DNA of 63,497 nucleotides, filler included, from Reclinomonas americana ATCC 50394 (lineage: Eukaryota), in NCBI GenBank assembly GCA_048213135.1. It is 11 parts of 11 records of this genome, joined end to end, with 100 filler letters (N's around TTAATTAATTAA, not from the genome) between each part and the next. Parts side by side here need not be neighbours in the genome. Positions count along the whole stretch, not along the records: positions 25,942 to 32,970 come from AFZH01022022.1; 10 more parts are not named here. One strand, given 5' to 3'. The notes beneath the pieces are model-generated. The model searched no databases. It had not been told where the DNA came from and saw nothing but the letters and a program-made list of their open reading frames with translations. Made by a program: the position numbers and the translations under genes. Positions within the stretch are counted from its first letter, which is position 1; each line of letters starts with the position of its first letter. Shown one piece after another: positions 7,108-30,340 of this stretch.

Positions 7108-9969
7108 CTACGACGTCTCAACCTGATCCGGATCGAGATCCCGCGGGCCGACGTCGGCACCGCCCGGCGCCAGGCGACGCATTACCACCTTTTCGATTTC
7201 GCGCAGCCACAGCACCGAGCTCGCGACAGCGATGCAGAGCAGCCAGTCGCTGATGCTCAGGAAGACGGTGGAGAACGCCTTCTGCAAAAACGGCGTGTAG
7301 ATCACCGCGGCATGCATCACCAATGACAAAGCGACCGCGAAGCAAAGCGAGCGATTTCGAAACGGCCGCCGCAAGGCACTGAGCTCGTCCGAGCGCGCAT
7401 TGAAGACATTGAAGAGCTGGAACATCACCAAGGTGGTGAACGCCATCGTCTGCCCGTACGCGATCGTGCCCGAGCCCTCGATCAGTCCGCCAGGAAGGGC
7501 TCCATCGAGCACGAGCAGCGTTCCCGTTGCCATGACGGCGCCGACGAAAACGACACCCGCCCACATCCGGCCGGTCAATACCCCTTCGTCGCGCAGCCGT
7601 GGCGGCCGGCTCATAACGTCGTCATCCGCAGGGTCGACGCCGATGGCAAGCGCAGGCGCACCATCGGTGACGAAATTGATCCAGAGAAGCTGTGTCGCCA
7701 GAAGCGGCAACGCGAGACCGCCGATGCCGGCTCCGCTGAGGCCGATCGTGCCGGCGAGGACAATGCCAAAGAACATCGTCATGACTTCGCCGATGTTCGA
7801 CGAGAGCAGATAGCGCAGAAACTTCCGAATGTTGGCGAAGATCGCTCGCCCCTCTTCGACCGCGGCGACAATGGTCGCGAAATTGTCGTCCGCCAGAACC
7901 ATGTCCGCTGCCTCCTTGGACACGTTGGTGCCGGTTATCCCCATCGCGATGCCAATGTCGGCTGCTTTCAGCGCCGGCGCATCGTTAACGCCGTCGCCGG
8001 TCATGGCGACCGTTTCTCCAGTCCGCTGAAGAGCCAGCACGATCCGCAGCTTGTGCTCGGGATTCACGCGCGCGTAGACGGAGACCTCTCTCACCGCATC
8101 GTCGAGCTCGTCGTCCGTCATGGCCTGGATTTGGGCGCCTGTGACCACCTGGTCGTCTACGGAAATGCCGAGCTCGCGGGCGATGACGCTCGCTGTCTTG
8201 GGATGGTCTCCGGTGATCATGAGGCAGCGGATGCCCGCAACCTGCGCACGCCCCACTGCTTCGCGCGCCTCGAGCCGTGGCGGATCGATCATGCCGATCA
8301 GGCCGATGAAGACGAGCTCGCGTTCGATCGCCTCCTCGAATTGGCTGGCCTCGGGAAGCTTTGCCGGCAGGAAGCGGAAGGCGACGCCGAGCGTACGCAG
8401 CGCCTCCTCGGCGAGGGCTTCATTGCTGGCCATGATCTCGACACGGCGCGCATCGGTGAGCGGCAGGGCATCCGACCCGACGAGTTCGTGGGTGCAGTGG
8501 TCAAGCAACACGTCGGGCGCCCCCTTGGTCACCAAGACGAGGCGTTCGGGCCGCTCCGCATCACTGTGGATCGTGCTCATGAGCTTGCGCTCGGACGAGA
8601 ATGGCACCTCCCCGACGCGGCCGAAGCGCGCATCGAGCGCCTCCGTCAGCAGACCGGCCTTGCGAGCGGCGACGATGAGCGCCACCTCCGTCGGGTCGCC
8701 GTGCACGACCCAGCCCTCCGCGCGCTCGCTGAGCAGCGCGTTGTTCGCACGCTCGGCGGCTGTCAGCGCGCGCACGATCTCCAATTGAAGGAGGCCGCTG
8801 GAACGTCCCGCCTCGCGGAATTCGACCTGGCCATTTGGCGCATATCCGGTTCCGGAAAGGTTGGCGCAGCCGCTCGCCGTTATGATCCGGCGCACGGTCA
8901 TCTCGTTCTTGGTCAGAGTGCCGGTCTTGTCCGAAGCAATGACGGTCGCGGAGCCCAGCGTCTCTACCGCGGAGAGGCGGCGAATGACGGCTCTGTTGCG
9001 CGCCATGCGCTGCATGCCGAGCGATAGCACGGCGGTGACGACCGCCGGCAGCCCTTCCGGCACTGCGGCCACGGCGAGCGCGACGCCGAGAAGCATCACG
9101 TCGACCGTGCGGGAAAGGCCACGGACCTCCGACAAGAGGAGGATGGTTCCGATGACGGCGGCGGCGATCAGGACGACGGTGATTGCAAGCACCTTGCCGA
9201 CGCGGCCAAGCTCCTTCTGCAGCGGTGTCGCTTCGTTCGGGGCCTTCTCCAGCATGCCGCTGATGCGACCCATCACCGTTCTCATGCCCGTCGCCGTGAC
9301 GACGGCGCGGCCGTGCCCGTAGATGGCAGTGGTGCCGCTGAAGAGCATGTTGCGCTGATCGCCGATCTCCGCCCTGCCGGAGATGGCGTCGATGTCCTTG
9401 GATACGGGCAGGCTCTCGCCGGTGAGCGCAGCTTCCATCGTCTGCAGCGCGGCGGACTGGATCAGCCGGGCGTCGGCGGGGATCGTGTCCCCCTCGGCGA
9501 CGAGGATTATGTCCCCCGGCACGAGGTCAGCGGAGGCGATGCTCGTCTGAACTCCGTCGCGGACGACGTCCGAGTGCATCGCCGACAATTGGCGCAAAGC
9601 TGCCGCGGCGCGTTCCGCCCGGGCCTCCTGAACATAGCCCAGCAGCCCATTGAGAACGACGATGGCGAAGATGGCCAGAGCTTCGTAGGGGACCTCAGTC
9701 TTCCCTTCGCGCCACCAAACGGCCGCGGAGATCGTTGCGGCGGCGAGAAGGAGGAGCACCAAGATATCGGTAAACTGCGCAAGCAGCTTCAGCCATTCCG
9801 GTCGTGGCGGCGGCGCATCGAGCTCGTTGGGACCATACTCCGTCAGACGACGCTTCGCTTCGGCCTGGTCGAGGCCGATGCTAGGATCCGCGGCCGCTGC
9901 CGAGAGCACGTCTGCGCAGCTCTGCCGATACGGTTCGTCAGACTTGGAATTTGGGGCTGTTACGAGCAT
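7108..9969 (-). CDS. Cation-translocating P-type ATPase (type IIA, Ca2+-ATPase-like)
   Basis: LTGES, VAAVPEGL, DKTGTLT phosphorylation site, MITGDH, MTGDGVNDAPALK; start placed at MLVTAP just after the AI-2E stop. Confidence 0.95.
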   Translation of the reverse strand: MLVTAPNSKSDEPYRQSCADVLSAAAADPSIGLDQAEAKRRLTEYGPNELDAPPPRPEWLKLLAQFTDILVLLLLAAATISAAVWWREGKTEVPYEALAIFAIVVLNGLLGYVQEARAERAAAALRQLSAMHSDVVRDGVQTSIASADLVPGDIILVAEGDTIPADARLIQSAALQTMEAALTGESLPVSKDIDAISGRAEIGDQRNMLFSGTTAIYGHGRAVVTATGMRTVMGRISGMLEKAPNEATPLQKELGRVGKVLAITVVLIAAAVIGTILLLSEVRGLSRTVDVMLLGVALAVAAVPEGLPAVVTAVLSLGMQRMARNRAVIRRLSAVETLGSATVIASDKTGTLTKNEMTVRRIITASGCANLSGTGYAPNGQVEFREAGRSSGLLQLEIVRALTAAERANNALLSERAEGWVVHGDPTEVALIVAARKAGLLTEALDARFGRVGEVPFSSERKLMSTIHSDAERPERLVLVTKGAPDVLLDHCTHELVGSDALPLTDARRVEIMASNEALAEEALRTLGVAFRFLPAKLPEASQFEEAIERELVFIGLIGMIDPPRLEAREAVGRAQVAGIRCLMITGDHPKTASVIARELGISVDDQVVTGAQIQAMTDDELDDAVREVSVYARVNPEHKLRIVLALQRTGETVAMTGDGVNDAPALKAADIGIAMGITGTNVSKEAADMVLADDNFATIVAAVEEGRAIFANIRKFLRYLLSSNIGEVMTMFFGIVLAGTIGLSGAGIGGLALPLLATQLLWINFVTDGAPALAIGVDPADDDVMSRPPRLRDEGVLTGRMWAGVVFVGAVMATGTLLVLDGALPGGLIEGSGTIAYGQTMAFTTLVMFQLFNVFNARSDELSALRRPFRNRSLCFAVALSLVMHAAVIYTPFLQKAFSTVFLSISDWLLCIAVASSVLWLREIEKVVMRRLAPGGADVGPRDLDPDQVETS

Positions 9970-15656: not shown

Positions 15657-15756
15657 NNNNNNNNNNNNNNNNNNNNNNNNNNNNNNNNNNNNNNNNNNNN
15701 TTAATTAATTAANNNNNNNNNNNNNNNNNNNNNNNNNNNNNNNNNNNNNNNNNNNN
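15657..15756. other. Artificial linker/gap
   Basis: 44 N + TTAATTAATTAA (stops in all six frames) + 44 N. Confidence 0.99.
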
Positions 15757-22319: not shown

Positions 22320-22419
22320 NNNNNNNNNNNNNNNNNNNNNNNNNNNNNNNNNNNNNNNNNNNNTTAATTAATTAANNNNNNNNNNNNNNNNNNNNNNNNN
22401 NNNNNNNNNNNNNNNNNNN
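22320..22419. other. Artificial linker/gap
   Basis: 44 N + TTAATTAATTAA + 44 N. Confidence 0.99.
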
Positions 22420-23197
22420 TTTCGTTTCACTAGTTCGGCCGCGAGGTTCCTTCCCGACGAGGACCTTGTTCCGTCGCGTGGCGGCGACGGGGGCAACAGG
22501 CGCCGACGTGGAGGCATTCGTCCGCCGCGCCAAAGGAACGGCCCGGCGCGCCGGTCGAGACCTTACCCTCGATGACCTGATGGCAACCGTGGCTGAGAAC
22601 GCGCCGGTTCTTCTGCCTCAGGACCGTTGGCGCATAGCAGTTCATGAAAGTGGCCATGCATTGGTCTCCCATGCGCTCAATACCGGCACCGTCTGGGGGA
22701 TCTCGATACACACGAGAGGCGGGTGCTTCGAATTCCAGAGCGAACTCACAGGTTCGGCGACGTTTGACCGCCTCCAGCGAGAGATCTCCGTGCTTCTCGG
22801 TGGTCGCGAAGCTGAACGCCTCGTCCTGGGCGAAGTGAGCATTGGTTCAGGGATGAATCTCGACTCCGATCTGGGCCGGGCGACTGGGTTCGCCCTTCTG
22901 ATCGAAACGCAGTGTGGAATGGGTCGACTAGGCAGAGCTTACATGGCCGAGGTGACGGGACTCGGCAGCTCGCCGGACCTCCACACCGCGGTGAACGCGC
23001 AGCTCAAGGAAGCAGAGGAGCGGGCCGCAGAAATCCTGGCGCCGCAGCAGGTGGCACTTGTGGCGCTGGCGACGGCCTTGGACCGGCGGGGCTATCTGTC
23101 CCGTGCGGAAATTGAAGCCATCCTCCGCGACAGCCGGCCGGCAGAACAGTCGGCTGTTGGAGAGCGGCCGGCTCAGGAATTCGCGAGGACCGCATGA
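22420..23197 (+). CDS. C-terminal part of an FtsH-like AAA ATPase / peptidase M41 protein
   Basis: AAA-lid-like TGATGADVEAFVRRA, zinc motif AVHESGHA, LLGGREAERLVLGEVSIGS, DSDL; Walker motifs not visible (presumably in the gap). Confidence 0.85.
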
Positions 23198-23406
23198 TGC
23201 GTCTCCATGAGGACGAAAGCGAGGCGTCGAGCCCTTCTAAGAACGGAGAGGCAATCCTCCTCGAGGAGGTCCACGCATTGGCCGCGAGCCTAGGGGTTGA
23301 GCCAGAGCGCGCGATACGCGCGCTCTCGATGGTCATCCGAAGGCGCACCGCGTTCGAGCGCCTCAAGCGCTCGGCCAACGAGCCCCTACGCGGCGCTCAT
23401 CGCTGA
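23194..23406 (+). CDS. Small hypothetical protein
   Basis: ATGA overlap with the M41 gene; 70 aa, helical character. Confidence 0.45.
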   Translation: MMRLHEDESEASSPSKNGEAILLEEVHALAASLGVEPERAIRALSMVIRRRTAFERLKRSANEPLRGAHR

Positions 23407-23467
23407 CCGAACTGCCTTTCTGACACCTGAGAAGGGGTCTCTTCCCTCAAAGACGAGGAGCGGCGAA

Positions 23468-24262
23468 ATGCGCCTGCTTGTGATGTCGGATCTGCATCTG
23501 GAGTTCACTTGCTTCAGCTTTCCGGACGATCTGCCCGAGTTCGATGTCGCCGTATTTGCAGGCGACATAGGGTGCCCGTTGGCGGCGACGATAGAATGGA
23601 TCGAGCGCAAGCGTCGTGGGCCACTGCGCGGCCGTCCGGTCGTCTTCGTGCCGGGCAACCACGAGTTTTATGGCACCGAGATCAATGGCGCGTTGAGCGA
23701 TGGTCGCGCCCGGGCCGAACGGTATGGAATCCATATGCTCTCGCCAGGCGGCGTTGCGTTGGCTGGCGTGCGCTTTGTCGGATCGACGCTCTGGACCGAC
23801 TACCAACTGTTTCGAAATCCGCGGAGCGCTCGCCGGGAAGCGCAACGAGAGATGAACGATCACAGGCGGATAAAGATTGGCCAAGGCGAGCAGTGCCGGC
23901 TCTTCAGACCTGCAGACGCTGCGGAGTTTCATCAGCGCGACGTATCCGAAATGACCCGGCTACTTGCTGAACCATTCGATGGAACTACCGTCGTGGTAAC
24001 TCACCACGCGCCTCATCCGAATTCGGTTCAGTCGATCTATGACAGAGACCCTTTGGCCCCAGCATTTGCATCTGATCTATCCGAGGTGATTGAGCGCTTT
24101 CAGCCTGATCTTTGGATCCATGGCCACGACCATGGATCCCACGACTATTACGTCGGAAAAACACGCATTCTGACCAACCAGGCTGGTTATCCCAGGCGCG
24201 GCGGAATCCGTGAGAACCCGGACTTCGATCCTCGGCTAGTCGTCCAGGTCGGAACGAAATAG
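23468..24262 (+). CDS. Calcineurin-like metallophosphoesterase
   Basis: SDLHLE, AGDI, VPGNHEFY, VVTHHAP, WIHGHDH; RBS GAGGAG. Confidence 0.95.
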   Translation: MRLLVMSDLHLEFTCFSFPDDLPEFDVAVFAGDIGCPLAATIEWIERKRRGPLRGRPVVFVPGNHEFYGTEINGALSDGRARAERYGIHMLSPGGVALAGVRFVGSTLWTDYQLFRNPRSARREAQREMNDHRRIKIGQGEQCRLFRPADAAEFHQRDVSEMTRLLAEPFDGTTVVVTHHAPHPNSVQSIYDRDPLAPAFASDLSEVIERFQPDLWIHGHDHGSHDYYVGKTRILTNQAGYPRRGGIRENPDFDPRLVVQVGTK

Positions 24263-24358
24263 GCGCCGCAGCGACAAACAATTGCCTCCGCTCATCCTGT
24301 GAGCGGGTGAGAGGTCGCCTGTTGTTCGCCGGACACTCAGATCGCAAGGAGAACGGCC

Positions 24359-24706
24359 ATGCGAACGCTGGAAGAAAAGCGTGCGGCTGCAATCGAGGAT
24401 CTGCGGCGGCTCAAAGACGGCTGGCGTCCGACCGAAGCGGACCTGTTGGACGCCGTTGGCATTGAGCGATGGGAGGTAAGAGGAAGTCCAGGGACCCGCG
24501 AGCAATTCCTATGGGGATTCGCGATCAACCATCCGCGCTTGGGAAGTCGGGCGATCCGAACGAGCAGGGTGCTCTGGATTAGCGAGGACGGGACCGTCGC
24601 TCGCACATTCAGTCGTTGGTATCGATTAGGCGAGCGGGCTAGGTCGATGCCAAACAAGCCGACAGTCGACGAGCCCGAGGCGGACGTGCTGGGGCCCCCT
24701 CTTTAA
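24359..24706 (+). CDS. DUF6634-like protein
   Basis: PTEADLLDA...W...LWG...HPRLG...IRTS...ARTFSRWYRLG signature; RBS AAGGAG. Confidence 0.78.
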   Translation: MRTLEEKRAAAIEDLRRLKDGWRPTEADLLDAVGIERWEVRGSPGTREQFLWGFAINHPRLGSRAIRTSRVLWISEDGTVARTFSRWYRLGERARSMPNKPTVDEPEADVLGPPL

Positions 24707-24747
24707 GCGTGGCGATGAAGGCCACCTCCGCACTAGATTTCTGAAGC

Positions 24748-25356
24748 CTATTCGAGTCGCTGGGATAACTCGCTTTCAATCTGTCGGTCGTATCGAACGA
24801 TCGCAGCCTTCAAAAAGGCCGGGACAGACTCCTCGTGCAGGCACACGACTTTTGGGCCTTTGCGACCCTTCAACGTTACTCTCAGTTTTTGACCACTGAC
24901 GGCTACTTCCCTGCCTGCCAAGGTGAGATCGACTAGGCGCTTCATTAGTTCCGATGCCGCCGGACGCGCATATTCGGGAACGAGCTTCATTACTCGGGCT
25001 GGCGTAAAGAGAGGCGGAGCGATTTCCTTGCACAGGGCTGGGATGTCGTCGGCGTGCAGGCACCAGCGTCCCTGCCGATAGACGCGGAACACCTGAAAGC
25101 GCACGACCTCCTTGCCCATAAGCGGTTGGCGGCCAGCCTCAACGCAGGAAATGGCGTTTCGCCAACCCCTCAGTATCCGATTAAGGTCGGAGCCCGCGAG
25201 ACCTGTGCGCAAAACGTCGGGCGCAGTGAGCCATCCTTCCGGCTTCGGCTGCAATAACGCTACCGAGCCCCGCCCAACAAGACGGTCCCAGGCAGGGTGC
25301 ATGCCGCTGGTAGACCTTAAGCTGAGCAGAGATTCTGTCGTCTCAGGCGTCTTCAT
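24748..25356 (-). CDS. Hypothetical basic protein with internal duplication
   Basis: 202-aa ORF with RBS GAGGAG; repeated motif CLHADDIPAL / CLHEESVPAF. Confidence 0.65.
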   Translation of the reverse strand: MKTPETTESLLSLRSTSGMHPAWDRLVGRGSVALLQPKPEGWLTAPDVLRTGLAGSDLNRILRGWRNAISCVEAGRQPLMGKEVVRFQVFRVYRQGRWCLHADDIPALCKEIAPPLFTPARVMKLVPEYARPAASELMKRLVDLTLAGREVAVSGQKLRVTLKGRKGPKVVCLHEESVPAFLKAAIVRYDRQIESELSQRLE

Positions 25357-25569: not shown

Positions 25570-26310
25570 TCTCCGTTATGTCTAACGGTACGATCATACG
25601 CTCCCTCTCGGGATGCTTTAGCGCGGGCATTTTGCCTGCCGTCGCACCGTTCGTGTCGACGGCAGCATAGCCCGTCCACTACGGCAAATCCCCCAAGAGC
25701 GAACGAGTCGGGATCAACTTCCCGACGATCGACCGTTGTCAGTGTCCAGCCTCTGGACACTGAGCAACTGTTGCTGAAGGGCCGACGGGGTCTTCAGAAC
25801 CGGTTGCGACTATGTCGCAACATCCCTTCCCTAGCAGGCTGNNNNNNNNNNNNNNNNNNNNNNNNNNNNNNNNNNNNNNNNNNNNTTAATTAATTAANNN
25901 NNNNNNNNNNNNNNNNNNNNNNNNNNNNNNNNNNNNNNNNNCTAGGCCAGGGGAAGGACCAGTCGGAGATCCAAGTCACCAGTTCAGGCTGGCTAAATGA
26001 AACGCCGGGAAAGCGTTGGCGCGCTTCCCCGGCGTTGGAACGGGCTTGGTCGCCCTGTTCCGCGGAGCATTGTTAGACACCCGCCCCTGAAGGCGGAGCT
26101 TCGTTCAGTGAAATCAACATGCACGGAGAGCAATGATGATCATTCTGACGAAGACCTGAAGAACTCAGGCGTACACCCAAGATTTTCACGGCTATGCTTC
26201 CGCTCTCTAGAGGCCCATTTCTGGCCCTCTACGATAACAGCTCTGCATAACCGCTCAGTCGTTCGACATCAATCCCCGGAGCGAACCTCCGCGGGAATTG
26301 GAGACGGTTA
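25570..26310. ncRNA. Candidate large structured non-coding RNA or leader (spans one gap)
   Basis: More than ten stem-loops nearly end to end with no convincing ORF; see findings. Strand undetermined. Confidence 0.5.
25842..25941. other. Artificial linker/gap
   Basis: 44 N + TTAATTAATTAA + 44 N. Confidence 0.99.
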
Positions 26311-26311
26311 C

Positions 26312-26614
26312 ATGAATTCATCCCTACCAATGCCCTACCAGATGCATTCAAATTCTCAGAATGCAGGCTCGGGCGCAGCGACTTCGCTTGCTGCTGGCCG
26401 CGATCGGACCGGCAAAAAGCGCACAAAGCAGGCAAAGCCGGGCCGGATTCGGTCGGCTCTGAGCTCAGACCTCGAAGCTAGCGTGCACGAGGAGTCCTTC
26501 GAGCTCGACCTCCTGCTCCCGACGACGAGCGGGTGGCGTCGACCTTCGCTCCGCATCAGCGCGGACTGCGAATTCGGCGTCATCCGCGACGTGGCACTCT
26601 CCTTCGACAGGTGA
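26312..26614 (+). CDS. 100-aa protein whose C-terminus resembles the TnsB catalytic-domain beta-strands
   Basis: RBS GGAG at 26300; ELDLLL...RPSL...D...GVI...LSFD aligns by eye to the local TnsB; stop 4 bp before the next ATG. Confidence 0.6.
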   Translation: MNSSLPMPYQMHSNSQNAGSGAATSLAAGRDRTGKKRTKQAKPGRIRSALSSDLEASVHEESFELDLLLPTTSGWRRPSLRISADCEFGVIRDVALSFDR

Positions 26615-26618
26615 ACCG

Positions 26619-27413
26619 ATGATCGATCTCATCAAAACTCTTCCTGCGCTCGACGCGGACTCCCCCTCGTTTGCGAGCCCGCCGTGCCTGGGGCTGCAAG
26701 TTCAAACAGCTTCACCGCTGCCGTCGCCCTCTCGCATGGGCTCAATCAGCGTCATCGAGACCTTCAAGGCCAGGAATTCGATCTTGGCTTTCGACAGCCT
26801 GGAGGCCGCTGCCTTTCACGAGGCGGCAGCGGATCCGCATGTCGAACTGATCGTGCCGCGTCCTCACCGATTGCTGGCTGACGTGACGGTCGGAGGTCAG
26901 TCCCGCATCGTGGCGTTCCGTCCGCTGCTCCTGACCACGGGAGCGCGCGGGACCAGCGTGGTAGCTGTCCGCTATTCCTGGGAGCGCGCCAAGCCGGACT
27001 GTCGGGAGCTCGAAGCTGCGCTGACGCGCGTCTATCGTCGCGATCATGGTGTGGGGCTTCGCTGGCGCACCGAACTCCAGCTGTTTGCCGAACCGCGCCG
27101 CTTCAATCGACGTCGGCTGGCCTCCTGTGCGGAGCGCGCTGATCCGGAGCTGACGGCCTCGATCATCTCAATGCTTCAGCGCTCGGATGGCCGAATCACC
27201 GTCAAGCGGCTCAACCGCGAGCTTGGCGGGAAGCTCGGCTGGCAGACTTTCCTTGAGCGGCTCATCCCGATCCACGTCGACGGGTTCATCGAACTCGCGC
27301 TCGAACGAGAGCTCACCGAGCTGACGCTCGTCAAGCTCGCGGCGCCGCCGCGCAGTCCACGCGCAGTGAAGCCGGATCGCTCTCGCGCCGGCTCGGTCCT
27401 GGAGTTCGCGTGA
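26619..27413 (+). CDS. TnsA-like protein with degenerate nuclease active site
   Basis: TnsA-like pattern (FK..., DSLE, DPHV, TELQL..EPR..N, C-terminal wHTH), but FRPLL and VAVRY replace PD and (D/E)xK. Confidence 0.72.
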   Translation: MIDLIKTLPALDADSPSFASPPCLGLQVQTASPLPSPSRMGSISVIETFKARNSILAFDSLEAAAFHEAAADPHVELIVPRPHRLLADVTVGGQSRIVAFRPLLLTTGARGTSVVAVRYSWERAKPDCRELEAALTRVYRRDHGVGLRWRTELQLFAEPRRFNRRRLASCAERADPELTASIISMLQRSDGRITVKRLNRELGGKLGWQTFLERLIPIHVDGFIELALERELTELTLVKLAAPPRSPRAVKPDRSRAGSVLEFA

Positions 27414-28126
27414 TGAAACGGAAGCGACCTTCAGTTCATCCGTCGAAGTTGGGCATTCACGCGGGAGCGCAGCCGTGTGGGCCCGACTGGTCGCGGGGCT
27501 CACACCAGTCTTGGCAGGGAACATTCGCGAGCGGGAAGGTCCTCGGGCCGTCACCCTATCGATCTTTCCTTGAGCGGGACTGCCTCACCCTTCTCGAGGC
27601 CAATCCGGCAATCACCGCCTTTAGCGTAGAGCCGCATATGTTGACGTACTCGATCCCGAATGCCGCCGGCGGCTTCGAGCCGCGGACGTACGTCCCGGAT
27701 TTTGGCCTGATCACGGCAGACGGGCAGATCTTGATCGTCGACGCCAAGGCCGAGGCGTTGCGGCAGATGGCAAGCTGGACAAGGCGCGAACCGCATATCC
27801 GGCAAGCCTATGCCGTCCAGCACGGCGTGCGGTTTCTGGTGCTTACGGAAGCGGCGATCCGTAAGCAGCCACGCCTCGCAAATTGCGAGGAGATGCTGGC
27901 GCATCGCGAGCCGGGAAATGACCCCGCCGCACTCTCGGCTATGCGGGACGTCCTCGCCATGGTCGAGGGTTCCTCGACCATTGGCGCTCTGACCGCCGCA
28001 GCGGCGCTCGTTTCTCCACCAGGTCAAGATCGCGCCTTCACCGCGATCATGCGCCTCGCGCTTCGAGGTGAGATCAAGATCGACCTCTCCCATCCGTTTT
28101 CTGCGACCACGGCTGTTCGCCGCTGA
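27410..28126 (+). CDS. tnsA: TnsA endonuclease
   Basis: RSFLERD, EANPAI...EP, YVPDF, IVDAK (PD-(D/E)xK intact), LTEAAIRKQPRLAN. Confidence 0.9.
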   Translation: MMKRKRPSVHPSKLGIHAGAQPCGPDWSRGSHQSWQGTFASGKVLGPSPYRSFLERDCLTLLEANPAITAFSVEPHMLTYSIPNAAGGFEPRTYVPDFGLITADGQILIVDAKAEALRQMASWTRREPHIRQAYAVQHGVRFLVLTEAAIRKQPRLANCEEMLAHREPGNDPAALSAMRDVLAMVEGSSTIGALTAAAALVSPPGQDRAFTAIMRLALRGEIKIDLSHPFSATTAVRR

Positions 28127-28150: not shown

Positions 28151-30340
28151 ATGACTTTGCAGTTTTCTCACTCCACCTTTTTGTCGCCTCTTCCGGTCCC
28201 TCGTTTCGAGTTCGACCAAGGACAGCCCCTGTTCATCAACGGCTCCGAATGCCTGTTCGAACGGCGGATCGGTGAGCGGCACCAGTTTCTGGACATTGCC
28301 TCGAAGGAGCCTCACTTCCTCACGGACTCCGAGGTGGCGGCGCTCGCCGCCGATGGTCAGTTTCATCCGGGTTTCGAGGATCCTCGCAGGCACGCGGGCG
28401 GCGTCGTGCATCCGTTCGCGGTTTCCGACGAGCAGAAGGTACAGAACCTCCGCAAGCACGAGTACGTGGTCGCCTGTTTGCAGGCGCCAGCGGGTTTCGC
28501 GCGCTCACGCAAACGCCTTGAACCCGCGATCGCAGCCGTCGCCAAGCAACGCGGCGAAAAGGCCCCCCATTTCACGACGGTATTGGCGTGGATCGACGAG
28601 TCTCAAATGCTCGGCGATCAGTTTGGCACCGCTGCCCATACAGATCGTTTCGATCTGCGCGGGCCACGAGTTCCGAAGCTCGCCGCCATCCACGAACATG
28701 CCCTTGAGCGGGGTATCAAACGCTGGCTTCTGCATCCGAAGATGACCATGCTCTTGGCCTACGCCAAGGTCGTCTCGACGATGCGCGCCTACGAGCGGAA
28801 GTTGGGAAAGTCGGTCGTCGCGCGGCTCGACCAGACAATTCTGGATGAGCAGGGGCGGCTTAGGATTCCCTCGCTCTCGACCTTCCAGCGCCGGTGCAAT
28901 GCGATCGATCGCTACACGCGGGACCTACACAAGATCGGTCCTCGCCACGCCGCGCTCGCGAACAGGACGTACACAACACGCGAGAAGCCCGACATCCCTT
29001 ACGAGCATGTCGAGGTCGACCACTGCACGCTCGATCTGCTGGTCGTTCACGAGCAAGGCGCGATTCTAGGGCGTCCCGACCTCGTGACGTTCCGCGATCG
29101 CGCGACCGGCATGATCCTCGGTATCGGGCTCGGATTTGAAGTTCCCTCCTACGCGAGCTTCCTCGAGGGACTGCGTCACGCGACTTTTCCCAAGGATCTC
29201 CGACCCTATCCGAGCGTGACCAATCCCTGGCCGTGCTATGGGCGCATCCGCAACCTCTACGTCGACAACGCCCTGCATTTCATCGGCGACAGCATCAAGG
29301 CCGCCGGGAAAGAGCTCAAATTCAACCTTGTGAAGTTCCGTCCGCGCGAGCCATGGCTCAAGGGTGCGCTAGAGCGGTTTTTCGGCACAATCAATACTGG
29401 CCTCGTCCATATGCTCCCCGGTACGACGCTCCAGAACATTCTGGAGCGTAGGAAGATCGAGGAGCTCGACGAGCCGTGCCTGACCCTTCGAGAGTTCAAG
29501 GCGCTGCTGCATTTTTGGATCTGCGAGATCTATCACGCGCAGAACAATAAGGGCCTTGGACTGATCCCAGGTATCGGGCTGCCACCGCTGGCTGCTTGGG
29601 CGGATAAGGCCAAAGATCTCAGGACTCCGCCTTTGCCCTCTCCGGACCTGTTCACAGCGCTCGCGGGAGAGGTCAAGTACAAGACGATTCAGAACGACGG
29701 CATTGCTTGGGATCACATCAAATACGAAGGCGCGGGCCTTTCAAAGATCTTGACAAACCCGAAGCATCGGAACCGCGGACGGCACGGCGGAGCAACCTCC
29801 TACAAGGTGGTCAGAAACCCATCTGACCTCTCGAAGATCTTCGTCGTGAACCACCACACGGACGAGATCGAAGAGATTCCCGCCGCTGAGGCATATCGGA
29901 AGTACACGTCCGATCTGACCGCATTTCAGCATGACGTGATGCGGGCGCACGCGCGCGCGCAACGCGACGGCGCGATCAATGTCGAAAAGCTGATGGCCGT
30001 GAAAGACCGCCTTTCGGACATCGTCGCCGCATTGCTCCAAGGGAAACAGCGGCGGGTCATGTCCAGGCGATTGGGCCGATACCTGGATGCTGAAGAGCGA
30101 CGCCGCATTCCGAGCCAGATCGCGCTGCCGAACAGCGATGCGGCGGCCGCCGCTGCGCACATCGACGTTGTTGCGGAAGCTGCCGCGCCTGTCGAGCTGA
30201 AGCAGCCTTCGTCGACGGCAGCCTCCGCCGAAGCAGCTCCGGGTTCGGCCCCCACGCTGCTCGGTTTCGCTCCTCTCGAACGGGACGATGAAGACGACGC
30301 GCTCTTCGACCAGCTCAAGTCCGAAAAGAATTGGAAGTGA
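28151..30340 (+). CDS. tnsB: TnsB DDE transposase (Mu/Tn7 type)
   Basis: HVEVDHC (D), LYVDNALHF (D), KGALERFF (E), PSLSTFQR HTH, Mu-like C-terminal region, acidic tail. Confidence 0.95.
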   Translation: MTLQFSHSTFLSPLPVPRFEFDQGQPLFINGSECLFERRIGERHQFLDIASKEPHFLTDSEVAALAADGQFHPGFEDPRRHAGGVVHPFAVSDEQKVQNLRKHEYVVACLQAPAGFARSRKRLEPAIAAVAKQRGEKAPHFTTVLAWIDESQMLGDQFGTAAHTDRFDLRGPRVPKLAAIHEHALERGIKRWLLHPKMTMLLAYAKVVSTMRAYERKLGKSVVARLDQTILDEQGRLRIPSLSTFQRRCNAIDRYTRDLHKIGPRHAALANRTYTTREKPDIPYEHVEVDHCTLDLLVVHEQGAILGRPDLVTFRDRATGMILGIGLGFEVPSYASFLEGLRHATFPKDLRPYPSVTNPWPCYGRIRNLYVDNALHFIGDSIKAAGKELKFNLVKFRPREPWLKGALERFFGTINTGLVHMLPGTTLQNILERRKIEELDEPCLTLREFKALLHFWICEIYHAQNNKGLGLIPGIGLPPLAAWADKAKDLRTPPLPSPDLFTALAGEVKYKTIQNDGIAWDHIKYEGAGLSKILTNPKHRNRGRHGGATSYKVVRNPSDLSKIFVVNHHTDEIEEIPAAEAYRKYTSDLTAFQHDVMRAHARAQRDGAINVEKLMAVKDRLSDIVAALLQGKQRRVMSRRLGRYLDAEERRRIPSQIALPNSDAAAAAAHIDVVAEAAAPVELKQPSSTAASAEAAPGSAPTLLGFAPLERDDEDDALFDQLKSEKNWK

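Follow-up and report, generated by a model that had tools for sequence, protein, structure and literature searches.

A predicted nuclease-dead TnsA paralog encoded together with an intact TnsA in a Tn7-like transposon

Introduction

Why would a Tn7-like transposon encode two TnsA proteins in a row, one of which seems to have lost its nuclease? This question is raised by the window, a stretch of 63,497 nucleotides from the assembly of Reclinomonas americana ATCC 50394 (GCA_048213135.1). An initial annotation of its sequence had described two tandem open reading frames (ORFs), here ORF1 and ORF2, as a nuclease-dead and an intact TnsA that together might tune or switch the mode of transposition or act as an adaptor. 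TnsA is the reason that Tn7 and most CRISPR-associated transposons (CASTs) move by cut-and-paste rather than by replicative transposition, and engineers who use CASTs for genome editing work to control the ratio of simple insertions to cointegrates. Where 5'-strand cutting by TnsA is absent, transposition becomes replicative, as passages of bioRxiv 10.1101/2024.11.13.623437 describe. Here we find that ORF1, which we name TnsA*, belongs to a family of TnsA paralogs that are predicted to be nuclease-dead and recur beside an intact TnsA, and for which we propose a putative non-catalytic role in transposition.

Catalytic residues of ORF1 and ORF2

The pair is carried on the + strand of a 7,029-bp bacterial contig (positions 25942-32970 of the window). 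ORF1 (26619-27413) starts with ATG and encodes 264 amino acids (aa); ORF2 (27410-28126) starts with GTG and encodes 238 aa. Their junction reads gcGTGATGaaa, in which the TGA stop of ORF1 (27411-27413) overlaps the GTG start of ORF2 at 27410. The resulting 4-bp stop/start overlap, GTGA (27410-27413, + strand), is a signature of translational coupling and confirms the overlap first described. An alternative ORF2 start, the ATG at 27413, would leave an overlap of 1 bp.

ORF2 has an intact TnsA active site (E55 / D97 / D111-x-K113) in the stretches SFLE(55)RD, YVPD(97)F and IVD(111)AK(113). At the aligned positions ORF1 reads DSLE(62)AA, AFRPL(103)LL and VVA(116)VR(118)Y: only E62 of the triad is retained, the aspartate being replaced by L103, the (D/E) of the (D/E)xK motif by A116 and its lysine by R118. 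Residues 94-118 of ORF1, the two strands expected to carry the D and the (D/E)xK, contain no acidic residue at all. In Tn7 TnsA the triad is E63, D114 and K132. In a comparison of the family profile with the PseTnsAB chain (E = 1.5e-5; chain index +2), the triad columns are those of E34, D71 and K87 of PseTnsA, which passages of PMC13598128 name as its catalytic triad. The claim that YVPDF...IVDAK in ORF2 and AFRPLL...VAVRY in ORF1 occupy equivalent positions is thus upheld by both the alignment and the PseTnsA-anchored columns. At the level of residues the reading of ORF1 as probably nuclease-dead and of ORF2 as intact holds as well, D and (D/E)xK being missing in ORF1.

ORF2 combines the catalytic triad with TnsA homology; it matches PF08722 (E = 5.4e-4, 20.9 bits, without reaching the gathering score of 26.5) and NF033179 (E = 5e-12, 45.7 bits, without reaching the cut-off of 110). 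Because ORF1 fails in the triad, it cannot be counted, by function, among the TnsA endonucleases.

ORF1 is a distant TnsA homolog

Is ORF1 a TnsA by descent? Curated models do not say so: ORF1 matches no Pfam or NCBIfam family at E<=1, including PF08722, PF08721 and NF033179, and none of eight TnsA* proteins matches a TnsA model (ORF1 at E<=1; seven relatives at E<=0.1). PDB sequence searches with ORF1 or ORF2 singly returned nothing relevant. A BLASTP match between ORF1 and ORF2 (26% over 81 residues, E = 0.002) and an hhalign comparison of two 4-sequence profiles, one for each ORF (50% probability), are each unconvincing alone.

Profiles built from the family connect the two. Among 1.84 billion representatives, a 4-sequence ORF1 profile (HMMER) finds 11 proteins at E<=1e-3. 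Four of these (P0008, P0010, P0011 and P0012) resemble ORF1 and are without (D/E)xK; another four (P0009, at 2.5e-9, P0013, P0014 and P0015) are ordinary TnsA-like proteins with E, PD and (D/E)xK, and such canonical proteins are reached at 2.5e-9 to 8e-4. The TnsA* profile matches the adjacent TnsAs at 1e-26 to 1e-34 (1.2e-26 in genome G001, about 1e-29 in three other genomes). The full-length alignment of ORF1 with TnsA is collinear from the N-terminal P..LGL motif to the C-terminal winged helix.

Structure prediction gives the same picture. An AlphaFold2 (AF2) model of ORF1 built from 26 sequences (predicted local distance difference test score, pLDDT, 85; predicted template modelling score 0.79) superseded a 4-sequence run that was unusable (pLDDT 42.5). 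The top four Foldseek matches of this model in the PDB are all TnsA (1t0f, 1f1z, 9bw1_M; E 4e-7 to 2e-5), 1t0f and 1f1z being Tn7 TnsA and 9bw1_M the TnsAB chain of the TnsABCD transpososome. In VIA-align the model superposes on 1f1z_A with Z 12.6 over 213 residues and on 9bw1_M with Z 10.5 over 214; residues 171-245 match many generic winged helices as well (Z 7-8). ORF1 is thus predicted to have the complete two-domain TnsA fold, with an N-terminal tail that carries the P..LGL motif, a PD-(D/E)xK-like core (residues 59-157) and a C-terminal winged helix (about 171-245). The initial annotation had called ORF1 a full 264-aa TnsA paralog with a C-terminal winged helix-turn-helix (wHTH) and had named the lack of a TnsA fold as what would overturn this; profile homology, model and superposition all side with it. 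Its statement that both ORFs follow the TnsA pattern stands for profiles and fold and falls for the curated models, where ORF1 has no match and ORF2 stays below the cut-offs. Three predictions of an ORF2+ORF1 complex, run without supplied alignments, scored 0.43, 0.00 and 0.00 and speak neither for nor against binding.

The TnsA* family

Word-based and profile searches together with fetched loci yielded 17 TnsA* rows that, less 3 duplicates, amount to 14 distinct sequences, mostly annotated as 'hypothetical protein', with sources that include Methylobacterium gregans, M. komagatae, a Methylobacterium metagenome-assembled genome (MAG), Enterovirga sp. CN4-39 and E. aerilata. The first glutamate (E62) is kept in 17/17 rows, the (D/E) position is A or T in 17/17, and the K position is K in none of the 17 and A, L, I or R instead. 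The PD aspartate is kept in nine rows and has become E in two, Q in two and L in four, the last being the ORF1 subclade (4/4). The partner TnsAs keep D and (D/E/Q)xK in 11/11. From these counts, (D/E)xK was lost first and the PD aspartate later, in the ORF1 lineage.

In a maximum-likelihood tree of 34 rows, a branch with 100/99 support sets the 14 TnsA* rows apart from the rest, and the ORF1 subclade is reached by a long internal branch (1.95). An earlier 27-row tree, made before the later loci were added, placed 13 TnsA* rows together at 99/99; MAG locus L011, a near-copy of L012, was excluded from both. The trees point to a single origin of TnsA*. One TnsA-like protein outside the TnsA* clade, P0016, has T for the PD aspartate and R for the K and may represent a second, independent inactivation of TnsA.

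A sample of 401 genomes at the order level contains a TnsA*-type gene in one genome (G001; 3/401 matched the profile), and a sample of 401 genomes at the family level contains seven such genes in six genomes (9/401 matched the profile); both sets are samples, from which absence elsewhere does not follow. A metagenome scan with the ORF1 subclade gave one locus (L026) that is 100% identical to G001 and hence not independent, and a tblastn search of PLSDB plasmids with P0018 gave no match. The TnsA* proteins are basic (net charge +7 to +14, pI 9.7-11.2) and more positive than the partner TnsA in 9/9 pairs, a charge that is compatible with retained nucleic-acid binding.

Gene order at nine loci

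Gene context could be read at nine loci: the window, G001, M. gregans, M. komagatae, Enterovirga CN4-39, E. aerilata C5 and C6, G605 and G431:C146. The Methylobacterium MAG locus is a near-copy of the M. komagatae locus. At all nine, tnsA*, an intact tnsA (D...(D/E/Q)xK), tnsB and tnsC follow one another in this order on the same strand, and tniQ comes next in 8/9. Because the arrangement recurs in 9/9 readable loci, the pairing of tnsA* with tnsA is more than chance, and the survey of synteny suggested in the initial annotation thus finds a recurrent pair.

The two genes overlap by GTGA or ATGA at 7/9 loci. At G605 (L018 about 8260-8330, - strand) about 70 nt lie between them, and coupling is therefore not universal; an inverted repeat that is GC-rich, GCCGGCGGCCCCGGCACGG, and a new GGAG ribosome site lie within this spacer. 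At E. aerilata C6 (L014 7551-8093, - strand) a 180-aa ORF that matches no Pfam family stands between tnsA* and tnsA.

Four related elements (G342, G114, G431:C192 and G645) carry a single canonical tnsA and no TnsA*. Upstream of these we found no TnsA* relic above noise, the best match (E 0.004) lying on the N-terminal motif that TnsA shares. Since G431:C192 nests inside the partner-TnsA clade (98/98), TnsA* was lost, or gained more than once. The TnsC C-tail motif (T/K)F(N/H)PFR(D/E) is present with and without TnsA*; TnsC tails are on the whole longer where TnsA* is present, in a sample too small to use.

Selection on TnsA*

A gene without a catalytic site might simply be decaying. Between the window and G001, the ratio of nonsynonymous to synonymous substitution rates (dN/dS) is 0.26 for ORF1, 0.08 for ORF2, 0.08 for TnsB and 0.13 for TnsC; between M. 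gregans and M. komagatae it is 0.38 for TnsA* and 0.15 for TnsA. Within ORF1 (window versus G001) dN/dS is 0.18 in the core (59-157), 0.23 in the winged helix, 0.30 in the N-terminal tail and 0.76 in the last 21 residues, which makes the dead nuclease-like core the most constrained part of the protein. For other TnsA* pairs the folded domains have values of 0.27-0.36. In metagenome-run contigs with a 90-95% variant (X4), both indels inside ORF1 (2/2) are multiples of 3 (+3 and -3 nt).

The DNA just upstream provides a yardstick. ORF0 (25997-26614, + strand) ends 4 nt before ORF1, and its reading frame is broken further upstream in G001. Its conserved part, ORF0' (26312-26614), the 100 codons just 5' of ORF1, has a dN/dS of 0.64, and its Methylobacterium counterparts 0.96. 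Given the low dN/dS of ORF1 against that of ORF0', and the in-frame indels, a pseudogene reading is unlikely, and ORF1 is under purifying selection rather than decaying.

The C-terminus of ORF0 shows weak similarity, as do the counterparts from M. gregans and M. komagatae, to the part of TnsB that follows the first DDE aspartate (tblastn E 1.6e-4, obtained with the M. komagatae counterpart; hhalign 31%, E 5.3e-4). In Enterovirga, the DNA upstream is similar to TnsB in the neighbourhood of its catalytic E (E 0.11). ORF0' probably derives from a second tnsB-like gene and is now a relic that evolves near neutrality, without clear selection, a hint that TnsA* may have originated in a second, now decayed transposase module.

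The transposon and its surroundings

On the + strand of the contig the order is ORF0, ORF1, ORF2, TnsB, TnsC and TniQ. The DDE transposase TnsB (28151-30340, 729 aa) matches PseTnsB (E 2.7e-41) and Tn6677 TnsB (1.2e-32; both phmmer) as well as the phrog_310 transposase (4.8e-28), and has no Pfam rve match at E<=1; its D290, D372 and E408 are invariant in an alignment of eight relatives. TnsC, a TniB-type AAA+ regulator (30331-31359, 342 aa), matches PF05621 TniB at E 2.1e-20 with 73.4 bits, above the gathering score of 22.4. The TniQ/TnsD-type target selector (31363-32970) matches PF06527 at E 1.5e-6 with 29.4 bits, above the gathering score of 27, and is cut by the contig end, where an N linker follows from 32971. 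A DDE transposase, an AAA+ regulator and a TniQ/TnsD selector together identify the locus as a Tn7-like transposon. PADLOC assigned no defence family to ORF1 or ORF2. Neither the element ends nor an empty site were located, and a comparison with the same-genus genome G271 gave low-identity paralogous matches only.

Linkers of the form N44-TTAATTAATTAA-N44 (15657-15756, 22320-22419, 25842-25941, 32971-33070 and six more) connect the contigs that make up the 63-kb window. The DNA of the transposon contig is 89% identical to contig C19 of G001. This genome is of the same GTDB family as M. gregans, since a search across the family of that species returns identical C19 coordinates, and the host of the transposon is a Methylobacterium-family bacterium. 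As far as 32970 the contigs of the window have a bacterial look, with 57-66% GC. The contigs that begin at 33071 and beyond differ in composition and skew, have CA-type repeats and include an ORF for a protein kinase of eukaryotic type (37385-38260, 'HRDLKPGNILL'). The record seems to mix two organisms.

In most related loci, with or without TnsA*, a block of genes lies upstream of the tns operon (22466-25356 in the window; equivalent regions of L007, L009, L010, L012, L013 and L020-L025). It contains a DUF6634 protein (24359-24706), one or two metallophosphoesterases (23297-24262; PDC-S10-like in PADLOC) and an AAA+ ATPase, with a weak M41-peptidase match, that is IetA-like in PADLOC. Either the element carries the block as conserved cargo, or the block belongs to the element's landing site.

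Role of TnsA*

What, then, might TnsA* do? On balance, and with modest confidence, we favour TnsA* as a putative non-catalytic subunit or regulator of the TnsA/TnsB/TnsC transposase that modulates its assembly or the extent of 5' cleavage. That TnsA* works with, or on, a Tn7-type transposase is very probable. TnsA* and TnsA would be made from one mRNA by translational coupling, in similar amounts; TnsA* would leave the DNA uncut, and its retained core and winged helix would attach to DNA of the donor ends, to the sites on TnsB or the TnsC tail where TnsA docks, or to both. It could then modulate how, or how often, active TnsA cuts the 5' strands, by scaffolding assembly or by lowering or biasing 5' cleavage. 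Passages of PMC13598128 report that catalytically inactivated TnsA still supports TnsB-dependent processing, that TnsA- and TnsB-inactive mutants of PseCAST affect each other's nicking, and that the PseCAST paired-end complex holds 4 TnsB and 2 TnsA. If our proposal is right, a natural, selected, portable, nuclease-dead TnsA co-made with the active one would subject the Tn7 transposase to a new level of control and provide a ready-made reagent for probing the roles that TnsA has besides cutting.

Several findings weigh against this proposal, or at least against its stricter forms. First, TnsA* does not diverge together with its partners. Within the main group, identities are 62-71% for TnsA, 56-72% for TnsB, 55-64% for TnsC and 38-48% for TnsA*. 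In G431:C146 and E. aerilata C6, TnsA, TnsB and TnsC are only 22-29% identical to those of the main group and the partner TnsAs fall far from the main partner clade, yet the TnsA* proteins are 41-56% identical to main-group TnsA* and no farther from it than main-group members are from each other. In the tree, TnsA* of C6 and the remaining Enterovirga TnsA* are sisters (100/99), and the C6 partner TnsA groups with the single TnsA of G114 (99/92). Either tnsA* has moved between Tn7-like elements whose cores differ greatly, or the cores behind it were exchanged. Such non-co-divergence is unexpected for a subunit that fits tightly onto TnsA, TnsB or TnsC; it is hard to see TnsA* relying on an interface finely tuned to one given TnsA or TnsB, and the TnsA/TnsA* heteromer imagined at the outset, as a tightly co-adapted heterodimer, loses ground. 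Second, the four elements with a single TnsA show that TnsA* is dispensable for transposition in this lineage. Found before very different TnsA/B/C sets and absent from four relatives, TnsA* is an optional, portable accessory module rather than a core component, which fits 'adaptor or regulator' better than 'obligate partner'. Third, TnsA* experiences selection 2.5- to 3-fold weaker than TnsA does. Finally, half of the alignment behind the AF2 model consists of canonical TnsA rows, which biases the model toward the TnsA fold, and with the element ends not found the activity of this copy is unproven.

The next most probable reading, though an unlikely one, is a dominant-negative brake, in which TnsA* would compete for the place of TnsA in the transpososome or sequester TnsB or TnsC, so that transposition and donor double-strand breaks stay rare. 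Dead or truncated transposase derivatives repress other elements, as Tn5 Inh and P-element KP do. The combination of a dead site with a full fold is what such a competitor would look like, and the position of tnsA* upstream of tnsA and coupled to it leads one to expect at least equal amounts. Its optional presence agrees too, and portability between different cores suits a generic competitor better than a fitted subunit. A competitor must still recognise TnsB and TnsC partners that are only 22-29% identical, however, and the strong constraint on the nuclease-like core does not separate a brake from a scaffold.

In our judgement it is rather improbable that TnsA*, as a dedicated non-cutting TnsA, occupies a set position in the transpososome, such as one of the two ends or the TnsB protomers to which no TnsA is bound in known structures. 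The 5' strand would then be cut at one end only, or in a fraction of events, and the choice between cut-and-paste and replicative transposition would be genetically hard-wired; since the module moves between unrelated cores, this would amount to a transferable 'mode switch', applicable to CAST editing tools. We hold the switch between the two modes by TnsA*, as first imagined for this locus, to be just as doubtful.

Less likely again is an independent DNA-binding accessory that would act outside the place of TnsA, binding a transposon end, a target structure or an operator and serving to mark ends, select targets or regulate transcription. The strongly basic charge, in excess of the partner's in every pair, and the retained and constrained wHTH would suit such a factor, as would the finding that TnsA* relatedness tracks the host genus (Enterovirga, Methylobacterium) and not the core machinery. 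A dead enzyme has a precedent in Tn7-like elements in TnsF of Tn6022, according to passages of PMC10293859. Target selectors of Tn7-like elements, however, usually adjoin tniQ or lie downstream and are not coupled before tnsA, and we identified no repeat or operator motif, the element ends not having been located.

We consider it very improbable that TnsA* is a gene on its way out, a remnant of an older duplication or of a second element that is kept only by its operon position through polarity or coupling. The probable tnsB-like relic just upstream does place decayed transposase DNA in the region, and the faster evolution of TnsA* and its absence from some elements point the same way. Against this, TnsA* is intact in 9/9 loci from at least two genera, at 28-48% identity among lineages, its folded domains have a dN/dS of 0.18-0.36 against 0.64-0.96 for the adjoining true relic, its indels are in frame, and it appears to have been transferred between elements. 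Hardly credible at all is a TnsA* that is still a nuclease, with a rearranged site in which E62 is joined by further residues, for instance the glutamate of SW(E/D)R at position 122: E62 is invariant, and in most members the residue after the conserved W121 is E or D, but P0020 has V at the E122 position, the catalytic strands are without acidic residues, the K position is unconserved, the invariant K50, E62 and E152 are common to active TnsA and so make no new site, and at the alignment level no conserved acidic or lysine residue is specific to the TnsA* clade as a replacement.

Comparison with known systems

Full-text literature searches found no dead TnsA encoded beside a live TnsA. Such a pair is also absent from the surveys PMC10293859 and bioRxiv 10.1101/2021.08.16.456562 in the passages covered. 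According to these passages, both surveys detect TnsA by Pfam models (with gathering cut-offs in PMC10293859), and since TnsA here falls below the gathering cut-off and TnsA* has no score, the pair would be invisible to surveys of this kind. The Tn7-like lineage itself escapes standard detection, only TniB and TniQ passing the cut-offs.

With Tn7 TnsA (PDB 1F1Z, 1T0F) and CAST TnsA (PseTnsA; TnsAB of 9BW1), ORF1 shares a restriction-enzyme-like (type II) N domain and a winged-helix C domain, and likewise stands first in a tnsABC-tniQ operon. It differs in keeping only the first triad residue, in matching no curated model and in being additional to an active TnsA. XPF-ERCC1, Mus81-Eme1 and the heteromeric tRNA-splicing endonucleases each combine a catalytic subunit with a dead paralog. 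TnsA* likewise appears to be a fold-keeping, catalytically dead and selected paralog encoded beside an active one; those pairs are obligate, whereas TnsA* is optional and exchanged between divergent partners. Dead enzymes are also co-opted by Tn7-like elements, as in the case of Cas12k.

Further parallels come from transposons. In the Streptomyces telomeric Tn7-like transposons, described in passages of bioRxiv 10.1101/2024.11.13.623437, the catalytic residues of TnsA are lost and the gene is kept, implying a non-catalytic role. There the sole TnsA is altered and obligate replicative one-ended transposition is proposed, whereas here a dead and a live copy share a coupled operon. TnsF of Tn6022, described as an inactive tyrosine-recombinase derivative that selects targets (passages of PMC10293859), is likewise an inactivated DNA enzyme kept as an accessory; it differs in fold, in operon position and in having an experimentally shown role, and TnsA* derives from the element's own transposase subunit. 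For TnsA* as a putative non-catalytic subunit or regulator, an analogy lies within the transpososome itself, which already uses chemically idle subunit copies as scaffolds: PseCAST has catalytic and structural TnsB protomers (as described in parts of PMC13598128). Those protomers are one gene product in two conformations, whereas TnsA* would be an idle form fixed in a separate gene.

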